Shown here in pieces: positions 25,161 to 41,441 of a stretch of 64,000 bases of DNA. The stretch comes from Pseudomonadota bacterium (GTDB lineage: Bacteria; Desulfobacterota; Desulfobacteria; Desulfobacterales; RPRI01): positions 32,001 to 96,000 of the forward strand of contig JBDRRF010000079.1 in NCBI GenBank assembly GCA_043825875.1, written 5' to 3'. Within the stretch, counting starts at the first letter, position 1. Each line of letters starts with the position of its first letter. A program made the position numbers and the translations under genes. Below the pieces are notes generated by a model. That model was not told the DNA's origin, made no database searches, and saw only the letters and a list, made by a program, of their open reading frames with translations.

Positions 25161-25304
25161 TTATAAAAAGTCCCCAAACCGTCATACCGGCGAAAGCCTG
25201 TATCCGGAACATATTGAGATCACTGGATTCCGGATCGGGTCCGGCATGACGAAACAGGCATTTTCCGACTTTTTACGGGATCATCACTTTTTACGAAATT
25301 GTCA
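25161..25304. repeat. REP-like palindromic element within MITE-like ends
   Basis: CGTCATACCGGCGAAAGCCTGTATCC...CTGGATTCCGGATCGGGTCCGGCATGACG (25180-25251), flanked by TAAAAAGTC / GACTTTTTAC; right end partly duplicated. Confidence 0.75.
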
Positions 25305-29289: not shown

Positions 29290-29302
29290 AGTTATAAAAA
29301 AT

Positions 29303-29407
29303 AGGGTTCAAGGTTTCCAGGGTTCGAGGGTTCAAGTGAGGATTCAGGTGATCAAATATACCTTTTTTTTTCGCTCGAACCCTTGACCACTCGAATCCTT
29401 GAACCCT
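29303..29407. repeat. inverted array of octamer repeats
   Basis: AGGGTTCA AGGTTTCC AGGGTTCG AGGGTTCA ... CTCGAACC CTTGACCA CTCGAATC CTTGAACC. Confidence 0.78.
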
Positions 29408-29457
29408 TAAACTATTACAGCAACAGCGCCCTGTCAAGGTGCTTTGGAGCCTTATAA

Positions 29458-32163: not shown

Positions 32164-32198
32164 AAACAGGATCACATAAAAAAGTTGGTGATCCTATA

Positions 32199-32234
32199 AG
32201 GGTTCAAGGGGTCAAGGATTCCAGGATTCAAGTG
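32199..32234. repeat. octamer repeat array, left arm only
   Basis: AGGGTTCA AGGGGTCA AGGATTCC AGGATTCA AGTG; preceded by hairpin AGGATCAC/GTGATCCT. Confidence 0.65.
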
Positions 32235-32283
32235 GAGTAAGGAAAACTTACAAATACTATAAAGAGGTATTAGTAAAGTTGAA

Positions 32284-34175: not shown

Positions 34176-35696
34176 TTAAAAGTCAAGCGGACTTTTGGCT
34201 TCTTTCAGGGTTGTACTTTTGATGGTATGTGTATAAATCATAGTGGTTCTGACATCACTATGCCCCAGTAATTCCTGAATGGTCCTTATATCATAGTTTG
34301 CCTGCAATAAATGACTGGCAAAGCTGTGGCGAAAGGTATGAGCAGTGGCACGTTTTGTAATCCTTGATTTGTCTACCGCCTTTTTTATGGTTTTTTGAAC
34401 AAGGCTTTCATGCAAATGATAACGTCGGTACTCCCCGCTTTTCTTTTCATAAGTTAATTGCATTGCCGGAAAAAACCACTGCCATATAAAATCCTTTGCT
34501 GCATTTTTATATTTTAACTCTAATGCATTTACCAGAAATACTCCGGCATATTTTCTTTCAATGTCCCGTTTATGCAAATCTTTCAATGTCTCAAGATGAT
34601 TTTTAAGTTCAGAAATGATTTTTTCGGGAAGCGGGACTGTTCTATCCTTTTGGCCTTTACCGTCATGAACTGTTAATATCCCTGCATCAAAATTCATACA
34701 ATGCACACGAAGACCCAGGCATTCAAAAAGTCGAAGTCCGCACCCATAAAGCAATTTCACAACAAGATCAAAGGGAGGTTCCAATAATTTCAGGATATCA
34801 TCAATCTCTTCACGAGATAGGACTACAGGGATATATGGTTTCCTTTTTGCTCTTACAACCCCGTCGAGTTTCCCGAATTCCCTGCGTAGAATATGCCGAT
34901 AAAAAAATAACAGCGAATTAAAAGCCTGGTTCTGAGTGGAAGAAGCTACTTTTCGCTTCACAGCCAAAGAGGTTAAGAATTCTTTAACATCGTCTGCTGA
35001 AAGCAATTCCGGGTTCTTGCTTTTTGTAAAAGTCTGGAATTTTCGAACCCATCCTTTATATGTCCTGAGAGTTTTAGGAGAATAATGCCTTACACTTATT
35101 TCATTCTCCAGGCCTGTGTATTCCTTTACCCATGAAGCACCGGTTGCTTGAACAGCGTACTTCTTATTTACCGGTTTGCTGACGGTTTTTAATGAACCGT
35201 TAAAAGTTGGTGATTCCGTAATAACTCCCGAAACCGTCATGCCGGACTCGATCTGGCATCCAGAATTGTTTATAATTTCAGAATGCTGGCTTTCGCTGGT
35301 ATGATGGGGCAAACTATTATCCTGCTTTGCGGGTCCATTAACAGCCTCACGAACAGAAAAAGCTTTGTGGCTTTTAGAAGGAATATATTCCCGATAATTT
35401 ACAGATTGGGTTACGATTTCCTTGTCTGTGAGACCTTTCATCTCAATTACTTCATAATACAGATTTACTGCAATTATTGCTTGATCTTGCTGCTCTTTAG
35501 TCTGTTTTTTTTCTTGCAGTTTACGGACAAACAGTAACAATTTATCTTTATTCGCTGGTGGGTGGCTATACTTGCCGCAAAAGTCCAAATAATAGCGCAG
35601 CCATTTTTTGTAAGCCACTTGTAAATTATTTGGGATTTTTCTTTTTATTAAAATAGCTTCAAATTGTTCCAGTATTTGGGAAGGGATAGCAAGCAT
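34176..35696 (-). CDS. intI: integron integrase (long form)
   Basis: STQNQAFNSLLF, LLYGCGLRLFE, GKGQKDR, IntI-specific patch ALELKYKNAAKDFIWQWFFPA..RRYHLHES, HTFRHSFASHLL, LLGHSDVRTTMIYTH. Confidence 0.95.
   Translation of the reverse strand: MLAIPSQILEQFEAILIKRKIPNNLQVAYKKWLRYYLDFCGKYSHPPANKDKLLLFVRKLQEKKQTKEQQDQAIIAVNLYYEVIEMKGLTDKEIVTQSVNYREYIPSKSHKAFSVREAVNGPAKQDNSLPHHTSESQHSEIINNSGCQIESGMTVSGVITESPTFNGSLKTVSKPVNKKYAVQATGASWVKEYTGLENEISVRHYSPKTLRTYKGWVRKFQTFTKSKNPELLSADDVKEFLTSLAVKRKVASSTQNQAFNSLLFFYRHILRREFGKLDGVVRAKRKPYIPVVLSREEIDDILKLLEPPFDLVVKLLYGCGLRLFECLGLRVHCMNFDAGILTVHDGKGQKDRTVPLPEKIISELKNHLETLKDLHKRDIERKYAGVFLVNALELKYKNAAKDFIWQWFFPAMQLTYEKKSGEYRRYHLHESLVQKTIKKAVDKSRITKRATAHTFRHSFASHLLQANYDIRTIQELLGHSDVRTTMIYTHTIKSTTLKEAKSPLDF
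35189..35341. repeat. REP/MITE copy embedded in-frame in intI
   Basis: 35235-35307 aligns ungapped with the reverse complement of the 25180 element; degenerate outer ends TTAATGAACCG / GGGTCCATTAA. Confidence 0.75.
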
Positions 35697-35894: not shown

Positions 35895-35924
35895 TCACCG
35901 GATCTGGTGAATAACTTGTTAGGT
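35895..35924 (+). other. attI site (core GTTAGGT at 35918-35924)
   Basis: Lies upstream of and divergent from intI; GAATAAC-TT-GTTAGGT immediately precedes the first cassette. Confidence 0.65.
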
Positions 35925-35955
35925 GTCCCCCACACAAAGACGAAAGGATATTATT

Positions 35956-36663
35956 ATGGGTTTCTTTAAAAAAATTTTTGGTAAAGAAAACGCTTCACGA
36001 TCATCAAATTCTGATAAAAATGATAAAGAAAGACAAAGTGAAAAGCGAATCACATTACCGGATGTACTTGCTAAAAAAGGTGATATGAACATTAGAGATG
36101 TAATTAAATCCTGTTCATCAAATGAATTACAAAAAATTATCAATGAATTACCTATTGAATCCCTCATATTAGATTCAACCGCATGTTCAGACGTTAGGCT
36201 GAATGACAGGTTGTTTCAAATTTGTATTCAATTTTCATCAGTTCTTGCGAATTATGATAGTATTAGAAATGAAAATCCTGATTTTAAGTTGCCTGTAGAC
36301 TTACCTGCTTTTGAATTATCAAAAAATTTAATCCCAAGATTTGTAGAACAAATAAAGGCTCAAAATACTTCTGATATTTTCCCCGCAGCTGGTCAAGAAA
36401 TATTCATTTTTGCACAAGACCTGATTAAAGGAGGGTGGAATCATGAGGCATTCGATTGTCTTTCAGTATGCGAGAACATCCCAGGTTTAAATAAAAATGA
36501 AGTTGTATTTTGGTCATGGGCATCTCTCCATAACATTGCCACTAAAACTAAGGTTCGTAAAATTATCAAACGTGCTTTGGAAGCTTCGAAAAAAATACCT
36601 GCTGGCCGTCGTGAAGAAGTTGCAAAGGCTATAGAGTGGGAACGTAAACAATTATTTGGCTAA
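35956..36663 (+). CDS. integron cassette hypothetical protein
   Basis: ATG 35956 after GAAAGGA; begins MGFFKKIFG; stop codon lies in GGCTAAC. Confidence 0.75.
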   Translation: MGFFKKIFGKENASRSSNSDKNDKERQSEKRITLPDVLAKKGDMNIRDVIKSCSSNELQKIINELPIESLILDSTACSDVRLNDRLFQICIQFSSVLANYDSIRNENPDFKLPVDLPAFELSKNLIPRFVEQIKAQNTSDIFPAAGQEIFIFAQDLIKGGWNHEAFDCLSVCENIPGLNKNEVVFWSWASLHNIATKTKVRKIIKRALEASKKIPAGRREEVAKAIEWERKQLFG

Positions 36664-36712
36664 CAAAAAACAGCTGACGCAAAAAGCCGCACCGCTAATT
36701 TTGACGTAGAAG
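36658..36712 (+). other. degenerate attC site
   Basis: GGCTAAC..CAGCTGACGCAAAAAGCCGCACCGCTAATTTT..GTAGAAG; same family as attC 37441 and 40117, but R' lacks GTT. Confidence 0.7.
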
Positions 36713-36724
36713 GAGGAAACTATT

Positions 36725-37420
36725 ATGGGTTTTTGGGGAAAAATATTTGGTAATAAAAATAATAACGATATAAAAATCGTCAAAAATGGAACTCATCACA
36801 ACTGGTATTTTTCAGAGGATAAAAAACGTGGATTGAACCAAATTGTCTTAAATCTCGATGGTCGTTCAGCAACCAAATCGCAATTTGGTAATTTGATTCT
36901 TAATCGTAATAAGTATGGTCCACTTTTTAGTGACCTTGCTGTTGGCTTTTTTGACCTTGATACAAATCCCGGCCCTTTTTTATTGGTTAAAAATTCTAGA
37001 TATGCCAAAGAACTTGCAAATGAGTCTATTACCATTGCATTTACATTTTGTCACATGCCATCGGGTCCACTATTCGCAATTTTCATGTATCCAAATTCAA
37101 AACAAGAAAGACTTCCTCCAGGAGCTTGCTTTACTGACCAAGTTTACAATATTAATGATTTTAAAGATCTAATTACAGGGTCATTTAAGAAAGATAAAAT
37201 GACTATTGTTTTTGCACAGGGTGGTGGCATGGCTGGTATAGATTGCCTTTTTGATGTGGAATATATTTTTAACAATTCACTTCATGAAAAATTTATAGAA
37301 CAATGGTCTAAACTTATTGAACACGGAAAGTCTGTACGTTCAATTTCTTTTGAAGCAAGTAGAGAAGAACTTTATGCCCGAACTCCAACCAATGAATCTC
37401 CAATTCTTAGGTTAAAATAA
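36725..37420 (+). CDS. integron cassette hypothetical protein
   Basis: AGGAGG RBS; begins MGFWGKIFG; followed by an attC. Confidence 0.8.
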   Translation: MGFWGKIFGNKNNNDIKIVKNGTHHNWYFSEDKKRGLNQIVLNLDGRSATKSQFGNLILNRNKYGPLFSDLAVGFFDLDTNPGPFLLVKNSRYAKELANESITIAFTFCHMPSGPLFAIFMYPNSKQERLPPGACFTDQVYNINDFKDLITGSFKKDKMTIVFAQGGGMAGIDCLFDVEYIFNNSLHEKFIEQWSKLIEHGKSVRSISFEASREELYARTPTNESPILRLK

Positions 37421-37440
37421 TGAGCGAGTAGCCCAAGAAC

Positions 37441-37500
37441 ACCTAACCAGGCTAATTCAGCCGACGCAAAAAGCCGCGCGGCTGATTAGCGGCGTTCGGC
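37441..37500 (+). other. attC site (60 bp)
   Basis: R'' ACCTAAC, GCTAATTCAGCCG / CGGCTGATTAGC stem with one extrahelical base, R' GTTCGGC. Confidence 0.9.
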
Positions 37501-37660
37501 AGGAGGCACTATTCTATTTGGGATTTTTCAGTCAAAAGCCATGTTCGAAGAACTTGAAACATTGAAAAAGAGCTATGACCAAATTAAAGAAAGCAAAATG
37601 GAATGCCTATTATGTATTAGTAGACATTATAAGTTGAACCTGAATTGAGAAAGGAGAAAC

Positions 37661-38209
37661 ATGAGAAAAACAATGGTGGTTTACATGTTGATTTGTTGTT
37701 TGGCGGTTTTAGTTAGCTGTCGACATCAAGGTGCATATGTCCCATACACTCCAGACCCGCAAGAGACATGGAGTTACAGTTCAATAACAAGCCCAGTAGT
37801 CACTAATGATTACACCATATCTATTGTGCCTGAATATTGGGGGAGTTACCGCAGAAATTTCGGATGGCAATGTTTTGCGCTTTCCGTAGAAAATAAGACG
37901 GATAAAAATATCGAAATTGTGTGGGACAAAACCCTTTTTGTAACAAAAGGTTCAACGAGTGGCAGATTTATGTTTGATGGCGTGATTTACAAAGATCGCA
38001 ACAATCCAAAACCCAACGATATTGTATTTGGAAATACCACACTTACCAAGTTAATTTTACCCAATAACCTCTTGGAATATATTAGGGGGTCTTCGATGGG
38101 GTGGCTTCATAATATAATACCACAAGGTGAAACTGGTATATATATTACCATTAAGATAGATGAAAAAGAAATTGGCGAAAAAGTGATAGTTAATATAAGT
38201 AAGGAATAA
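37661..38209 (+). CDS. integron cassette lipoprotein, hypothetical
   Basis: AAGGAGA RBS; lipobox LVSC. Confidence 0.8.
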   Translation: MRKTMVVYMLICCLAVLVSCRHQGAYVPYTPDPQETWSYSSITSPVVTNDYTISIVPEYWGSYRRNFGWQCFALSVENKTDKNIEIVWDKTLFVTKGSTSGRFMFDGVIYKDRNNPKPNDIVFGNTTLTKLILPNNLLEYIRGSSMGWLHNIIPQGETGIYITIKIDEKEIGEKVIVNISKE

Positions 38210-38278
38210 AGTAAGTTGCTTACAACCAGACAGTTTGGGAAGAAGCGGGACGTTCCAATGAACAACAAGGCAGAAAGC

Positions 38279-38405
38279 GCCGAACAATTTAATACACACT
38301 GACCCCAAGGAGCTATTTTTTCGGCTGTCATTTCGGCTGTAGTTACCATAGTTTCCTGTGTTGTAGTTTTGTGTTTCCTTGGGGCAGGTGATCATGGCGT
38401 TAGCT
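38279..38405 (+). other. attC site (127 bp)
   Basis: R'' GCCGAAC (complement of this cassette's 5' GTTCGGC), CACTGACCCCAAGGA / TCCTTGGGGCAGGTG stem, R' GTTAGCT. Confidence 0.85.
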
Positions 38406-38442
38406 TACGAATGAAAATGAAAACCAGACATCAAAAAAAATA

Positions 38443-38737
38443 GAGTTTTTTGAAGGCAGGCAAAAAAACCCTAAAAAGGAGATTCTTATGGCGGATAAAA
38501 TGAAAGTTGAAACAGGTAGCAATGCTTTTATTATGGAGGCCAGTGATGATACTATGCTTCTTGGCCTGAAGCTTCCGAAATGTCCTCACCCGAAAGGTAC
38601 AATGATTAAAGTTTCTCTTGCTCCCGAAGGAGCAAAAGATGATGGCTCTCTAAAAGGAATATGTTGCGATGGCCTTTGTTGGAGCAACTGATTAAATAAA
38701 CATAAACTAAAAAATTTTGCCTGCCTTCAAAAAACTC
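38443..38737. repeat. perfect 23-bp inverted repeat bracketing the peptide gene
   Basis: GAGTTTTTTGAAGGCAGGCAAAA (38443-38465) and TTTTGCCTGCCTTCAAAAAACTC (38715-38737). Confidence 0.95.
38488..38691 (+). CDS. putative RiPP precursor peptide (C-terminal GICCDGLCWSN)
   Basis: 67 aa, AAAAGGAGA RBS, directly upstream of a radical SAM/SPASM gene. Confidence 0.75.
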   Translation: MADKMKVETGSNAFIMEASDDTMLLGLKLPKCPHPKGTMIKVSLAPEGAKDDGSLKGICCDGLCWSN

Positions 38738-38756
38738 GATATATGGAGTAGAGACT

Positions 38757-40076
38757 ATGAAGTCTTCAATGTTTAATCTCGTTTTTGATCATCAAGGAAG
38801 CATCTATTGCTTCAACACTGCTAGCGGTGCTCTTCTTCCAATCTCTGGAGAAACAAAAAAAATAATTAAGGGGAAAAAAATACATACCGATCAATTGAGC
38901 GTTAATTATCCTGATTTAGTGAAAGGTCGATTTTTTGTTCCACCAGAAACGGATGAAATAAAAAAACTCCGATTTAAATATGAATCCCAACGTTTTAATA
39001 CTTCTATCTTAGCACTAACAGTTTGCCCTACTCTTTCATGCAATTTTGCTTGCCCTTACTGCTTCGAATCGCCCAGTATTCAGCAAGGATACATGAGTGA
39101 AGAAACTATCAATTGTTTAATACAGTTCTTGGAGGCACACTTGCCGTCAAAAAAATCTTTACTGTTAACTTGGTTTGGAGGTGAGCCTTTATTAGGGCTG
39201 TCTATAATTGATAGGCTATCAAAAACAATTATTGAACTTTGTGAAAAAAATGAAGTTGAATACAGTTCCTCTATAATCACGAATGGTTATCTTCTTAACC
39301 GTGAAAATGCCGAAACTCTTCTTGCCAATCAAATAACGAGAGTTCAAGTAACCATTGATGGAACAGAAAATGTTCATAATGCAACTCGCTCCCTTAAAAA
39401 CGGAAAAGGAACATTTAACCGCATTATTACTAACGTTCTTTGTTGTAAAGATATTTTAGATGTTGCTATCAGAATAAATTTACACAATAAAAATGCCTAT
39501 GATATGGATAAGCTCATTGCATATTTAGCGGAAAAGGGCTTAGCGAATCAGGCATATGTGGATCGAGTAACAGATGAGGCACATTCTAACAGATGCTTGA
39601 GTTGTGATGACTTTACTTCATTATCGATAGATGACTTTTCAAAATATGAAACAAGAGCGTTAAATGTATTTGCAAACCAAAGAATACTTGACAGGAAGTT
39701 AAAGCCTAAACCAACTTTTTGTGCGGCCACAACTCTATCAATGTTTGTATTAGATCCAGCCGGCAATATTTTTAAATGTTGGCACAGTGTAGGCAATATT
39801 CATGAGTCCATAGGCAATATACACCAAGAGTCAATTGAATTGAATGAGAACCATATAGACTGGCTCTCCTATCTGCCTTATGACGATGATAAATGTTGTA
39901 GTTGTATTTGTCTACCTATTTGTCAGGGCGGTTGCATTTATCAAAAAATATTAGGTGTAAAAGTATTTGGAGAATGTGATTCTATTCGAAGCAACCTGGT
40001 TGATACATTACGGATTGTAATTGATAATGATTTGAATTCTACAAAGCTATCTCATGATAATGTGGTGACTTGTTAA
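38757..40076 (+). CDS. radical SAM/SPASM domain peptide maturase
   Basis: RRE-like N-terminus (FNTASGAL), CNFACPYC, WFGGEPLL, ITNGYLL, QVTIDG, SPASM FC..GNIFKC..CCSCICLPICQGGC..C. Confidence 0.9.
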   Translation: MKSSMFNLVFDHQGSIYCFNTASGALLPISGETKKIIKGKKIHTDQLSVNYPDLVKGRFFVPPETDEIKKLRFKYESQRFNTSILALTVCPTLSCNFACPYCFESPSIQQGYMSEETINCLIQFLEAHLPSKKSLLLTWFGGEPLLGLSIIDRLSKTIIELCEKNEVEYSSSIITNGYLLNRENAETLLANQITRVQVTIDGTENVHNATRSLKNGKGTFNRIITNVLCCKDILDVAIRINLHNKNAYDMDKLIAYLAEKGLANQAYVDRVTDEAHSNRCLSCDDFTSLSIDDFSKYETRALNVFANQRILDRKLKPKPTFCAATTLSMFVLDPAGNIFKCWHSVGNIHESIGNIHQESIELNENHIDWLSYLPYDDDKCCSCICLPICQGGCIYQKILGVKVFGECDSIRSNLVDTLRIVIDNDLNSTKLSHDNVVTC

Positions 40077-40116
40077 TCCGCTGTTTTGTATTGTACCAAT
40101 CTGAGATAATTGAAAA

Positions 40117-40174
40117 AGCTAACCAATAAATCCAGCGGACGCAAAAAGCCGCGCCGCTGATTTAATCGTTATAG
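40117..40174 (+). other. attC site (58 bp)
   Basis: R'' AGCTAAC (complement of cassette 5' GTTAGCT), TAAATCCAGCGG / CCGCTGATTTA stem with an extra C, R' GTTATAG. Confidence 0.9.
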
Positions 40175-40190
40175 CCAAGAGGAGGAAAGA

Positions 40191-40376
40191 ATGAAGAGAA
40201 TCGGAATACTCGTCTTATTACTTTTGATCATTCTGAGTGGTTGCTCAACGCGGTCAATCTCTAATTCAGGATACAGCCCTGAAAGCTACTACCGCCCCCA
40301 AGCCGATAATCCGTTGTACAAGGGTGAGTTGAGTGAATTCGACGGGGCAGTTTGGGGACGCCCTTTACATTTATAG
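40191..40376 (+). pseudogene. truncated cassette lipoprotein
   Basis: GGAGG RBS, lipobox LSGC; after ~40343 the frame reads into the transposase element end; no attC follows. Confidence 0.6.
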
Positions 40377-41441
40377 TTGACAACCTAAATATTTTATATT
40401 AAAAAGATAACATGCCAAGAAAAGCAAGAGTAGATGCGCCGGGAGCCCTTCATCATATCATTGTGCGGGGAATCGAGCGGGCCAAAATATTCAGGGCCGA
40501 TTCCGATCGTGATGATTTTTTGAACCGGTTTGGAAAACTTATAACCGAAACAAAAAGCCTTTGTTTTGCATGGGCTTTATTATCAAATCATTTTCATTTG
40601 CTGGTAAAAACCGGTAGTGTTCCGGTGTCAACTTTGATGAGGCGGCTGCTTACCGGATATGCGGTTTCATTTAACCGGCGGCATAATCGATCAGGGCATC
40701 TATTTCAGAACCGCTATAAATCCATTTTATGCCAGGAGGATGCTTATCTGCTTGAGCTGGTTCGTTACATTCATCTAAATCCCATCAGGGCAAAGCTTGT
40801 TGAAAATATGGAGGCTTTGGATCATTATATTTATTCCGGGCATAGTAATATCATGGGTAAGATTAAAAGACCATGGCAGGATATAACTGATGTTTTAGAA
40901 TTGTTCGGGAACAAAACAGGAACAGCCCGCAGGCGTTATAAGGCATTTGTTGAAAAAGGTATTTCGGAAGGCACGCGTCCAGATTTGATAGGGGGAGGTT
41001 TGATAAGAAGCAGCGGAGGCTGGGAAGCAGTAAAAGCCATGCGCAAGGCGAAGCTATTCGAGAAATCCGATGAACGCATACTTGGAAACGGAGATTTTGT
41101 TGAGACAGTACTTGCTGAATCAAATGAGAATATGAAACGAAAATATCATTTAAGGTCTAAGGGATTTGATCTTGAAAATGTTGCAGTCAGAGTATCGGAA
41201 CTTACAGGTATTGATAAATCGCAGATATTTCTTTCAGGAAAGGAGCAAAGCCGAGTTATTGCGCGCAGCATATTTTGTTATTTTGCTGTTCGGGAACTTG
41301 GGATAAGCATGTCAGAGCTTTCGAGGAAGATGGATCTTTCTTTATCAGGCGTGAGTTTATCGGTGAAACGTGGTGAGAAAATAGTTGATAAGACAGGTTA
41401 TTGTCTCATTGAAAAATAAAAACTTTGGCTCTAAAGAGCGT
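40354..41441 (+). mobile_element. RAYT/Y1 transposase element with imperfect terminal repeats
   Basis: Left end GGGGACGCCCTTTA (40354-40367); right remnant TAAAGAGCGT (41432-41441). Confidence 0.55.
40412..41419 (+). CDS. REP-associated tyrosine (Y1/HUH) transposase with C-terminal DnaA-like HTH
   Basis: MPRKARVDAPGALHHIIVRG, NHFHLL, GHLFQNRYKS, RYIHLNP. Confidence 0.9.
   Translation: MPRKARVDAPGALHHIIVRGIERAKIFRADSDRDDFLNRFGKLITETKSLCFAWALLSNHFHLLVKTGSVPVSTLMRRLLTGYAVSFNRRHNRSGHLFQNRYKSILCQEDAYLLELVRYIHLNPIRAKLVENMEALDHYIYSGHSNIMGKIKRPWQDITDVLELFGNKTGTARRRYKAFVEKGISEGTRPDLIGGGLIRSSGGWEAVKAMRKAKLFEKSDERILGNGDFVETVLAESNENMKRKYHLRSKGFDLENVAVRVSELTGIDKSQIFLSGKEQSRVIARSIFCYFAVRELGISMSELSRKMDLSLSGVSLSVKRGEKIVDKTGYCLIEK

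Follow-up and report, generated by a model that had tools for sequence, protein, structure and literature searches.

A 64,000-nt stretch of the genome of a bacterium of the Desulfobacterales (lineage RPRI01; GenBank assembly GCA_043825875.1, contig JBDRRF010000079.1, positions 32,001 to 96,000), hereafter the window, contains a chromosomal integron with an integrase gene (intI), an attI site and three mobile units. The third unit (38400–40168) carries a putative pathway for a peptide that is made by ribosomes and then modified post-translationally (RiPP). Its cargo comprises a 67-aa open reading frame (ORF), the candidate precursor peptide, and a 439-aa radical S-adenosylmethionine (SAM)/SPASM enzyme, the predicted maturase, with no other sizeable ORF. 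We read this RiPP cassette, with a probability of roughly 0.7, as a promoterless two-gene precursor and maturase system whose core peptide would be cross-linked and whose leader would be removed by the host. A preliminary description of the same DNA had proposed a self-contained precursor with an RRE-radical SAM/SPASM maturase in one cassette, and the present analysis supports that proposal. The limits it gave for the cassette, the 67-aa ORF with a strong ribosome-binding site ending GICCDGLCWSN, and the intact radical SAM enzyme with CNFACPYC and a SPASM Cys set were all recovered as described.

The limits of a cassette can be checked internally, as the six bases following G/TT at its start are part of the cassette itself and are complementary to the R'' box in the attC site of that cassette. 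All three units of the array show this complementarity, over 8/8, 7/7 and 8/8 bases. For unit 2, the starting GTTCGGC (37494–37500) complements the R'' box GCCGAAC (38280–38286), and for the RiPP cassette GTTAGCTT (38399–38406) complements the R'' box AAGCTAAC (40116–40123). The cassette opens at G/TTAGCTT (38399/38400) and closes at the R' box G/TTATAG (40168/40169). The start and R'' boxes match exactly in all three units and the integrase lies 2.7 kb upstream of the cassette; the limits are therefore beyond chance, and the stretch 38400–40168 counts as a genuine gene cassette of the integron, in third place among the mobile units of a short array on the chromosome beside intI. The bottom strand of its attC site (attC4) folds as single-stranded DNA into a hairpin of −14.2 kcal/mol (z −3.5, equalled by one of 200 shuffles) in which the AAC/GTT R boxes are paired, the spacer is unpaired and bulged bases lie on one arm. 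The site scores 63.6 bits with a covariance model that was trained on attC4 itself and 12 other sites.

The candidate precursor has a predicted leader that includes KLPKCPHPKGTMIKVSLAPEG and the core ICCDGLCWSN. It matched no family in Pfam or the curated family scans, and in the public data searched its own family numbers three. One relative, P0122, was found by a word-indexed search on a 658-bp contig and is 80% identical to the window peptide, with an identical core. The other lies on L084, a 2,493-bp Joint Genome Institute (JGI) metagenome contig that is GC-richer than the window and unrelated to it. The L084 peptide also has 67 aa and is ~39% identical overall to the window peptide; it retains the leader positions P-K, I-x-V-S-L-x-P and G and ends ICCDGLCWSK. 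A 432-aa maturase, 35% identical to that of the window, starts 115 bp 3' of the peptide ORF. Between the window and L084 the ICCDGLCWS core is identical at 9/9 positions, including the three Cys, and in a quick FastTree of 121 maturases the two enzymes are sisters with a Shimodaira–Hasegawa-like support of 98, both on long branches. Because enzymes that have drifted to 35% identity keep a 9/9 identical core alongside them, the 67-aa ORF and the 439-aa enzyme are, judged by conservation, a real precursor–maturase pair. Read in the same way, the joint conservation of core and enzyme is the pattern of a substrate–enzyme pair under selection on its product.

Wider searches with the peptide added little. 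A search of 1.84 billion representatives with a profile built from the three peptides gave back the window peptide itself, the L084 peptide and four further matches judged spurious, and the two of these four that were retrieved were long repeat proteins. The only match in 400 other genomes of the phylum was weak (E 0.007), lay within a 225-aa frame and was also judged spurious, and in a protein atlas the nearest clusters were unnamed and at noise-level scores (0.89–0.90). Complex prediction of the maturase with the peptide scored 0.00, which is informative neither way.

The preliminary description had also asked whether a conserved peptide lies upstream of maturase homologs. One does in the nearest relative, L084, with the same core. 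More distant homologs were drawn from the best 80 of 515 confirmed related genome-contig stretches, representing 79 loci from many phyla at 29–39% identity, and an ICCDGLCWS-like motif occurred at none of the 79 in any frame. A small ORF with at least three Cys in its last 30 residues stood directly upstream at 30 of the 78 usable loci, though so mechanical a rule picks up chance frames as well. We further considered that the 67-aa ORF is not the substrate, being unrelated or a chance frame, and that the enzyme acts on another protein or a small molecule. In favour of this, the peptide has no curated family match; against it stand the identical core directly upstream of a sister maturase in the unrelated, GC-richer L084 although the enzymes are just 35% identical, the strong Shine–Dalgarno site before the ORF, and the Cys-rich small ORFs of the distant loci, which look like a habit of the family. 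We regard this reading as highly improbable.

In a separate observation, distant maturase homologs at L081 (2436–2651), L061 (2345–2554) and L064 (1508–1855) are preceded by peptides with Cys/Trp cores and leaders of the nif11-like or nitrile-hydratase-like kind. The end of one of these peptides, AGGICWDNCNYQAVLL, resembles GICCDGLCW.

In the maturase, the Radical_SAM domain PF04055 scores 53.9 bits, and TIGR04085, the model of the SPASM domain, 47.6 bits (cut-off 27). The CX3CX2C motif CNFACPYC (C95/C99/C102) and seven SPASM Cys (C322, C341, C380, C383, C389, C393 and C407) are invariant across an alignment of 26 sequences. Among 5.8 billion clustered proteins, 1080 of 7999 scored candidates were retained at E ≤ 0.001, and the best of them other than the enzyme itself were 31–39% identical. 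The top curated families are all maturases of Cys-rich peptides, namely TIGR04463 (285.7 bits vs a cut-off of 525), Clo7bot TIGR04334 (271.9 vs 600), CefB NF038107 (214 vs 600), FlmE/OhkG (198 vs 500), the geopeptide maturase TIGR04280 (186.3 vs 400) and PapB NF047865 (144.7 vs 340). The three best align almost end to end (TIGR04463 residues 12–406, Clo7bot 2–421, CefB 1–394), yet at about half their cut-offs; to our knowledge, the products of these three families are uncharacterised. The enzyme does not fall among the sulfatase maturases, a grouping that would have told against the preliminary description. Its score with the anaerobic sulfatase maturase family TIGR03942 was only 99.9 bits (cut-off 349), and the window enzyme has an N-terminal domain that the anaerobic sulfatase-maturating enzyme (anSME) is without.

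This domain was examined in an AlphaFold2 model of the maturase (predicted local distance difference test, pLDDT, 81.9; predicted template modelling score, pTM, 0.82). CteB (5wgg) was the top match of the maturase in the Protein Data Bank with both Foldseek and phmmer (sequence E 1.3e-17), and aligned to the model over residues 4–425 (402 residues, Z 28.9). TigE aligned over residues 1–438, and anSME only from residue 83 on. Residues 1–82 are modelled as three strands (7–29) and three helices (31–56) at pLDDT ~67–91 and align with their N-terminal counterparts in CteB and TigE, and Pfam returned no match on residues 1–95, PqqD included. The RRE-like N-terminus that had been claimed is thus found in the modelled fold and not in the domain profiles; by the model, the domain is RRE-like, with the layout of a leader-binding RiPP recognition element (RRE).

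In two characterised ranthipeptide systems, CteB/SCIFF (thermocellin) and PapB/freyrasin, the enzyme joins an N-terminal RRE to a radical SAM core and to a SPASM domain that has two auxiliary clusters; the window maturase has this build with an RRE-like N-terminal domain. In both systems, as in the window, a short peptide whose C-terminal core is rich in Cys is encoded just upstream. CteB and the window maturase are only ~20% identical, the SCIFF maturase family TIGR03974 gave 92 bits (cut-off 425), and neither leader nor core of the window peptide is related to SCIFF or PapA. Unlike either system, that of the window lies inside an integron cassette.

By analogy with these systems, Cys thioethers would be the most likely links in the product, and we give them about even odds. 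They are favoured because the closest characterised relatives (CteB, PapB) make thioethers, and because the core has Cys-Xn-Asp (n = 0 or 1) and a Cys three residues from the C-terminus. PapB joins Cys to Asp/Glu in Cys-Xn-Asp with n = 0–6 and also joins Cys to a C-terminal residue (PMC9413430, PMC12373016), and the Cys-Xn-Asp spacings of the window core are inside this range (PMC9413430). Candidate thioethers would run from C59 or C60 to D61, as with PapB, and/or from C64 to a C-terminal residue.

The same cassette and pair might instead make a C–C or ether link at Trp65, for example a W-S-N/K three-residue cyclophane or a link of the darobactin/streptide type, with the Cys in other roles. 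The core ends W-S-N in the window and W-S-K in L084, both of which fit the aromatic-X-X pattern of triceptides. Trp-modifying SPASM enzymes also appear among the matches of the maturase, with DynA at 96.9 bits and the three-residue cyclophane families at 52–61 bits, below their cut-offs (YhhB 60.6 vs 445, GrrM-OscB 56.7 vs 310, AmcB 51.7 vs 425). These matches are, however, far weaker than those to the maturase families of Cys-rich peptides (145–286 bits), and those to YhhB, GrrM and AmcB are restricted to the radical SAM core (residues ~86–264). The three Cys of the core are invariant and the nearest solved structure is that of the thioether-former CteB. A Trp-centred product is accordingly unlikely, and thioether links are preferred.

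The proposed route from the cassette to its product is as follows. Promoter-like sites are no commoner in the region (18) than in shuffles (17.3), and since there is no local excess, the promoterless cassette would be transcribed from the integron promoter near attI. Precursor and maturase would each be translated from their own Shine–Dalgarno site. The RRE domain would bind the conserved leader around the I-x-V-S-L-x-P region, and the maturase would then use a 5'-deoxyadenosyl radical to cross-link the 10-residue core. Removal of the leader and any export would fall to host factors, or the product might remain intracellular.

The precursor cistron is flanked by the two arms of an inverted repeat, and both the minimum free energy (MFE) and the centroid folds of the RNA retain a long-range helix around it (z −5.1). 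L084 has a counterpart of different sequence, with arms at 733–747 and 1084–1098 (14/15 complementary), whose helix is retained in the MFE fold and whose 3' arm overlaps the maturase start codon. At the RiPP loci L002, L030 and L061 a local hairpin follows right after the precursor, not a long-range helix. The long-range helix is probably a device for differential RNA processing or stability. In the proposed route, this helix of 23–26 bp would close off the precursor cistron and probably set the ratio of precursor to enzyme through RNA processing or stabilisation.

Two other explanations of the inverted repeat were tried. It was rejected as a repetitive extragenic palindrome (REP) or REPIN of the nearby Y1 transposase-like gene, as a search of the 4.77-Mb genome at ≤4 mismatches gave two occurrences of the arms and no more. 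An invertible DNA switch found no support either, as the metagenome contigs contained no inversion joints.

Several observations weigh against the reading of 38400–40168 as a mobile RiPP system. The maturase falls under every curated equivalog cut-off, so that its chemistry does not follow from membership of a family. The R' box of attC4 (GTTATAG) deviates from GTTRRRY, and attC3, which sets the 5' limit, by itself folds no better than shuffles (z 0.0). Public contigs of a groundwater metagenome, probably the source sample of the host genome, break at attC2 and attC4, so that unit order depends on the metagenome-assembled genome and on even depth (25.7, 26.6 and 26.7 for the contigs over the region). 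The cassette-borne state is known from the window only. The 2.5-kb L084 contig, too short to reveal its wider surroundings, shows no attC, a crude structural scan gave no convincing attC downstream of the 79 distant homolog loci, and none was found at the 65 of these scanned with the attC covariance model, which detects only the attC type of the host genome. Finally, the ORFs of the cassette include no peptidase, exporter or immunity gene, as had been noted before.

The site attC3 has a 15-bp L stem, two bulged bases on the '' arm and a loop of ~64 nt, and it was not called by a simple regional attC finder. A DNA search of the genome showed that its 3' arm recurs on contig C68, ~2.6 kb from the intI of that contig, in a compact attC of 62 nt where an ORF ends (fold z −4.4). 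The stems (CACCTGACCCCAAGG / CCTGGGGCCAGGTG) and spacers of the two sites are alike, the R' box is GTTAG, and both arms are homologous. Because both arms are homologous to this strongly folding attC, attC3 is accepted as real; by this homology it is the same attC type as the C68 site with ~64 extra nucleotides in the loop.

Were attC3 nonetheless dead, the unit would extend over 37495–40168 with lipoprotein, peptide and maturase; were the whole array a fossil, none of it would move, and in either case the pair would not be an independently mobile single cassette. The long loop, the z of 0.0 and the missed call are what a dead site would give, one metagenome contig (37467–40163) runs unbroken across attC3, and in attC1, another site of the array, degeneration is plain. 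No excision or inversion joints occur in the contigs of three runs, a result without bearing on mobility as contigs drop rare variants. Against this, the R''/R' bookkeeping is exact on either side of attC3 (7/7 and 8/8), its arms, bulges and R' box are conserved with the working-looking attC of the C68 integron, and the intI reading frame is open and intact. An immobile or larger unit is on balance improbable, and the two-gene cassette stands as the preferred unit.

At attC2, the attC is common to many other metagenome contigs, whose sequences part precisely at its two borders, with loose ends at 37440–45 and 37496–37500, and the summed depth reaches 590 vs ~26 elsewhere. This picture fits a community pool of cassettes with a common attC type. 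Two RNA runs matched nothing but attC-like repeats and a portion of the transposase-like gene, and in every match the flanks were foreign.

The sites attC1, attC2 and attC4 are copies of a ~60-nt repeat family with the core GACGCAAAAAGCCGC. Thirteen sites of this type from eight contigs of the host genome were aligned, and compensatory changes were found in 7/8 modelled stem pairs. The covariance model built from them, attC4 included, recovered 14 sites in the genome (the 13 training sites and one further) and no attC match at 67 other loci. Same-type sites are spread across at least eight contigs, with five on contig C109 (L088), and the genome encodes four integron integrases above the TIGR02249 cut-off (contigs C51, C68, C107 and C79). 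With one attC type on at least eight contigs and four integrases, the host genome is therefore predicted to hold several arrays or integrase-less cassette clusters.

The integrase of the window matches Phage_integrase and Phage_int_SAM_4 in Pfam. Its integrase part spans aa 196–505 in the TIGR02249 alignment and is preceded by ~190 extra aa. The first 95 aa of this extension are similar to a second N-terminal SAM-like domain, and a 73-nt stretch within it (35235–35307) is 77% complementary to 25179–25251, 10 kb off. The 5' part of intI may contain a small repeat element. The start of unit 1 complements the R'' box of attC2 and not that of attC1, so that two cassettes seem to have fused into one. 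The two paralogues of this unit begin MGFFKKIFGKE and MGFWGKIFGNK (repeat D3). The features of the array are given in Table 1.

Table 1 Features of the integron and its RiPP cassette (positions in the window).
Feature	Position	Strand	Description
intI, integron integrase	34176–35696	(−)	506-aa ORF; TIGR02249 integrase_gron 392.2 bits vs cut-off 265
attI crossover box	35918–35925	(+)	GTTAGGTG; first cassette unit begins there; 8/8 complement of CACCTAAC
Unit 1	35919–37494	(+)	Two paralogous ORFs of unknown function; GTTAGGTG (35918) vs R'' CACCTAAC (37440), 8/8
Unit 1 ORFs	35957–36663 (from ATG); 36725–37420	(+)	Paralogues
attC1, degenerate	36657–36715		Between unit 1 ORFs; R' without GTT (GACGTAGAAGG)
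attC2	37440–37501		3' end of unit 1; R'' CACCTAAC
Unit 2	37495–38399	(+)	182-aa putative lipoprotein (37661–38209), then long attC3
attC3	38280–38405	(+)	attC of unit 2 and 5' limit of RiPP cassette; R'' GCCGAAC, R' GTTAGCT
Unit 3, RiPP cassette	38400–40168	(+)	1,769 bp; TT of preceding R' to G of own R'
Inverted repeat, 5' arm	38440–38465	(+)	26 nt; 25/26 complementary to 3' arm
Candidate precursor peptide	38488–38691	(+)	67 aa; GGAG 6 nt 5' of ATG; C-terminus KGICCDGLCWSN
Inverted repeat, 3' arm	38715–38740	(+)	Ends 4 nt before maturase Shine–Dalgarno site
Predicted RRE-radical SAM/SPASM maturase	38757–40076	(+)	439 aa; GGAG 8 nt 5' of ATG; PF04055, TIGR04085
attC4	40116–40175	(+)	attC of RiPP cassette; R'' AAGCTAAC, R' GTTATAGC

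A second two-gene peptide and maturase unit like that of the window lies in the same genome, on contig C66 (L002, 1117–2616), and belongs to the geopeptide systems. Its 41-aa precursor, which looks unannotated, ends GIMCCSGALAPFR and shares G-I-(M)-C-C-x-G with the window core. The two maturases are 31% identical; that of C66 passes TIGR04280 (561 bits vs 400), whereas the window enzyme scores 186. The C66 locus has a 19-nt local hairpin after the precursor in contrast to the long-range helix of the window.

Integron cassettes are mostly of unknown function, and the best known carry genes for resistance, toxin–antitoxin pairs and, recently, phage defence. Toxin–antitoxin cassettes are also an example of cassettes with more than one gene. 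Two-gene cassettes have been described for the Sucellos and Toutatis defence systems, which resemble the window in placing a small multi-gene system in one cassette of a chromosomal integron (bioRxiv 10.1101/2024.07.02.601686). Their cargo is defence, whereas that of the window is a putative peptide-biosynthesis pair and not a defence or addiction module. PADLOC gave only generic radical SAM matches (pVip, viperin model) to the maturase core at ~44–45 bits, and none for six further proteins (four cassette ORFs, the 61-aa ORF just past attC4 and the transposase-like gene).

Full-text literature searches, whose coverage leaves most subscription journals outside, returned no report of an integron cassette with a RiPP pathway. 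By term look-up, radical SAM or RiPP is not mentioned in two integron papers (bioRxiv 10.64898/2026.03.17.712381 and 10.1101/2024.07.02.601686), nor are integrons in two surveys of radical SAM RiPPs (PMC10288494 and PMC10114670). As a single unit, the cassette could take a whole small pathway for a modified peptide from one genome to another. If this is true, integrons also carry natural-product biosynthesis between genomes, here in a 1.8-kb unit that needs only a promoter and is small enough for direct synthesis. That the core stays invariant while enzyme and leader diverge suggests that the product has a specific target. The arrangement also suggests a mining rule, namely attC-flanked radical SAM/SPASM genes with a small ORF upstream. 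A far wider reading, which we consider doubtful, would make integrons a general vehicle for minimal RiPP pathways and the product a new cross-linked decapeptide, with the helix setting the ratio of precursor to enzyme in any array. The product would then have an intracellular or stress/defence role and would not be a secreted bacteriocin, because the cassette is without exporter or protease.

Downstream of attC4, a 61-aa ORF (40191–40376, (+)) matches the lipoprotein signal LPAM_1 at 22 bits; no attC was found for this ORF, which may be a truncated cassette at the array end. It is followed at 40412–41419 (+) by an IS200/Y1-type transposase-like gene with a DnaA-C-like helix-turn-helix, which scores 65 bits with the model of REP-associated tyrosine transposases (cut-off 80). 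Lanthipeptide genes have reportedly been connected to TnpA_REP transposases in a preprint. Elsewhere in the window, arrays of motifs with an 8-nt period (AGGGTTCA/AGGTTTCC-like), both direct and inverted, flank polA on both sides at 29295–29425 and 32189–32242.

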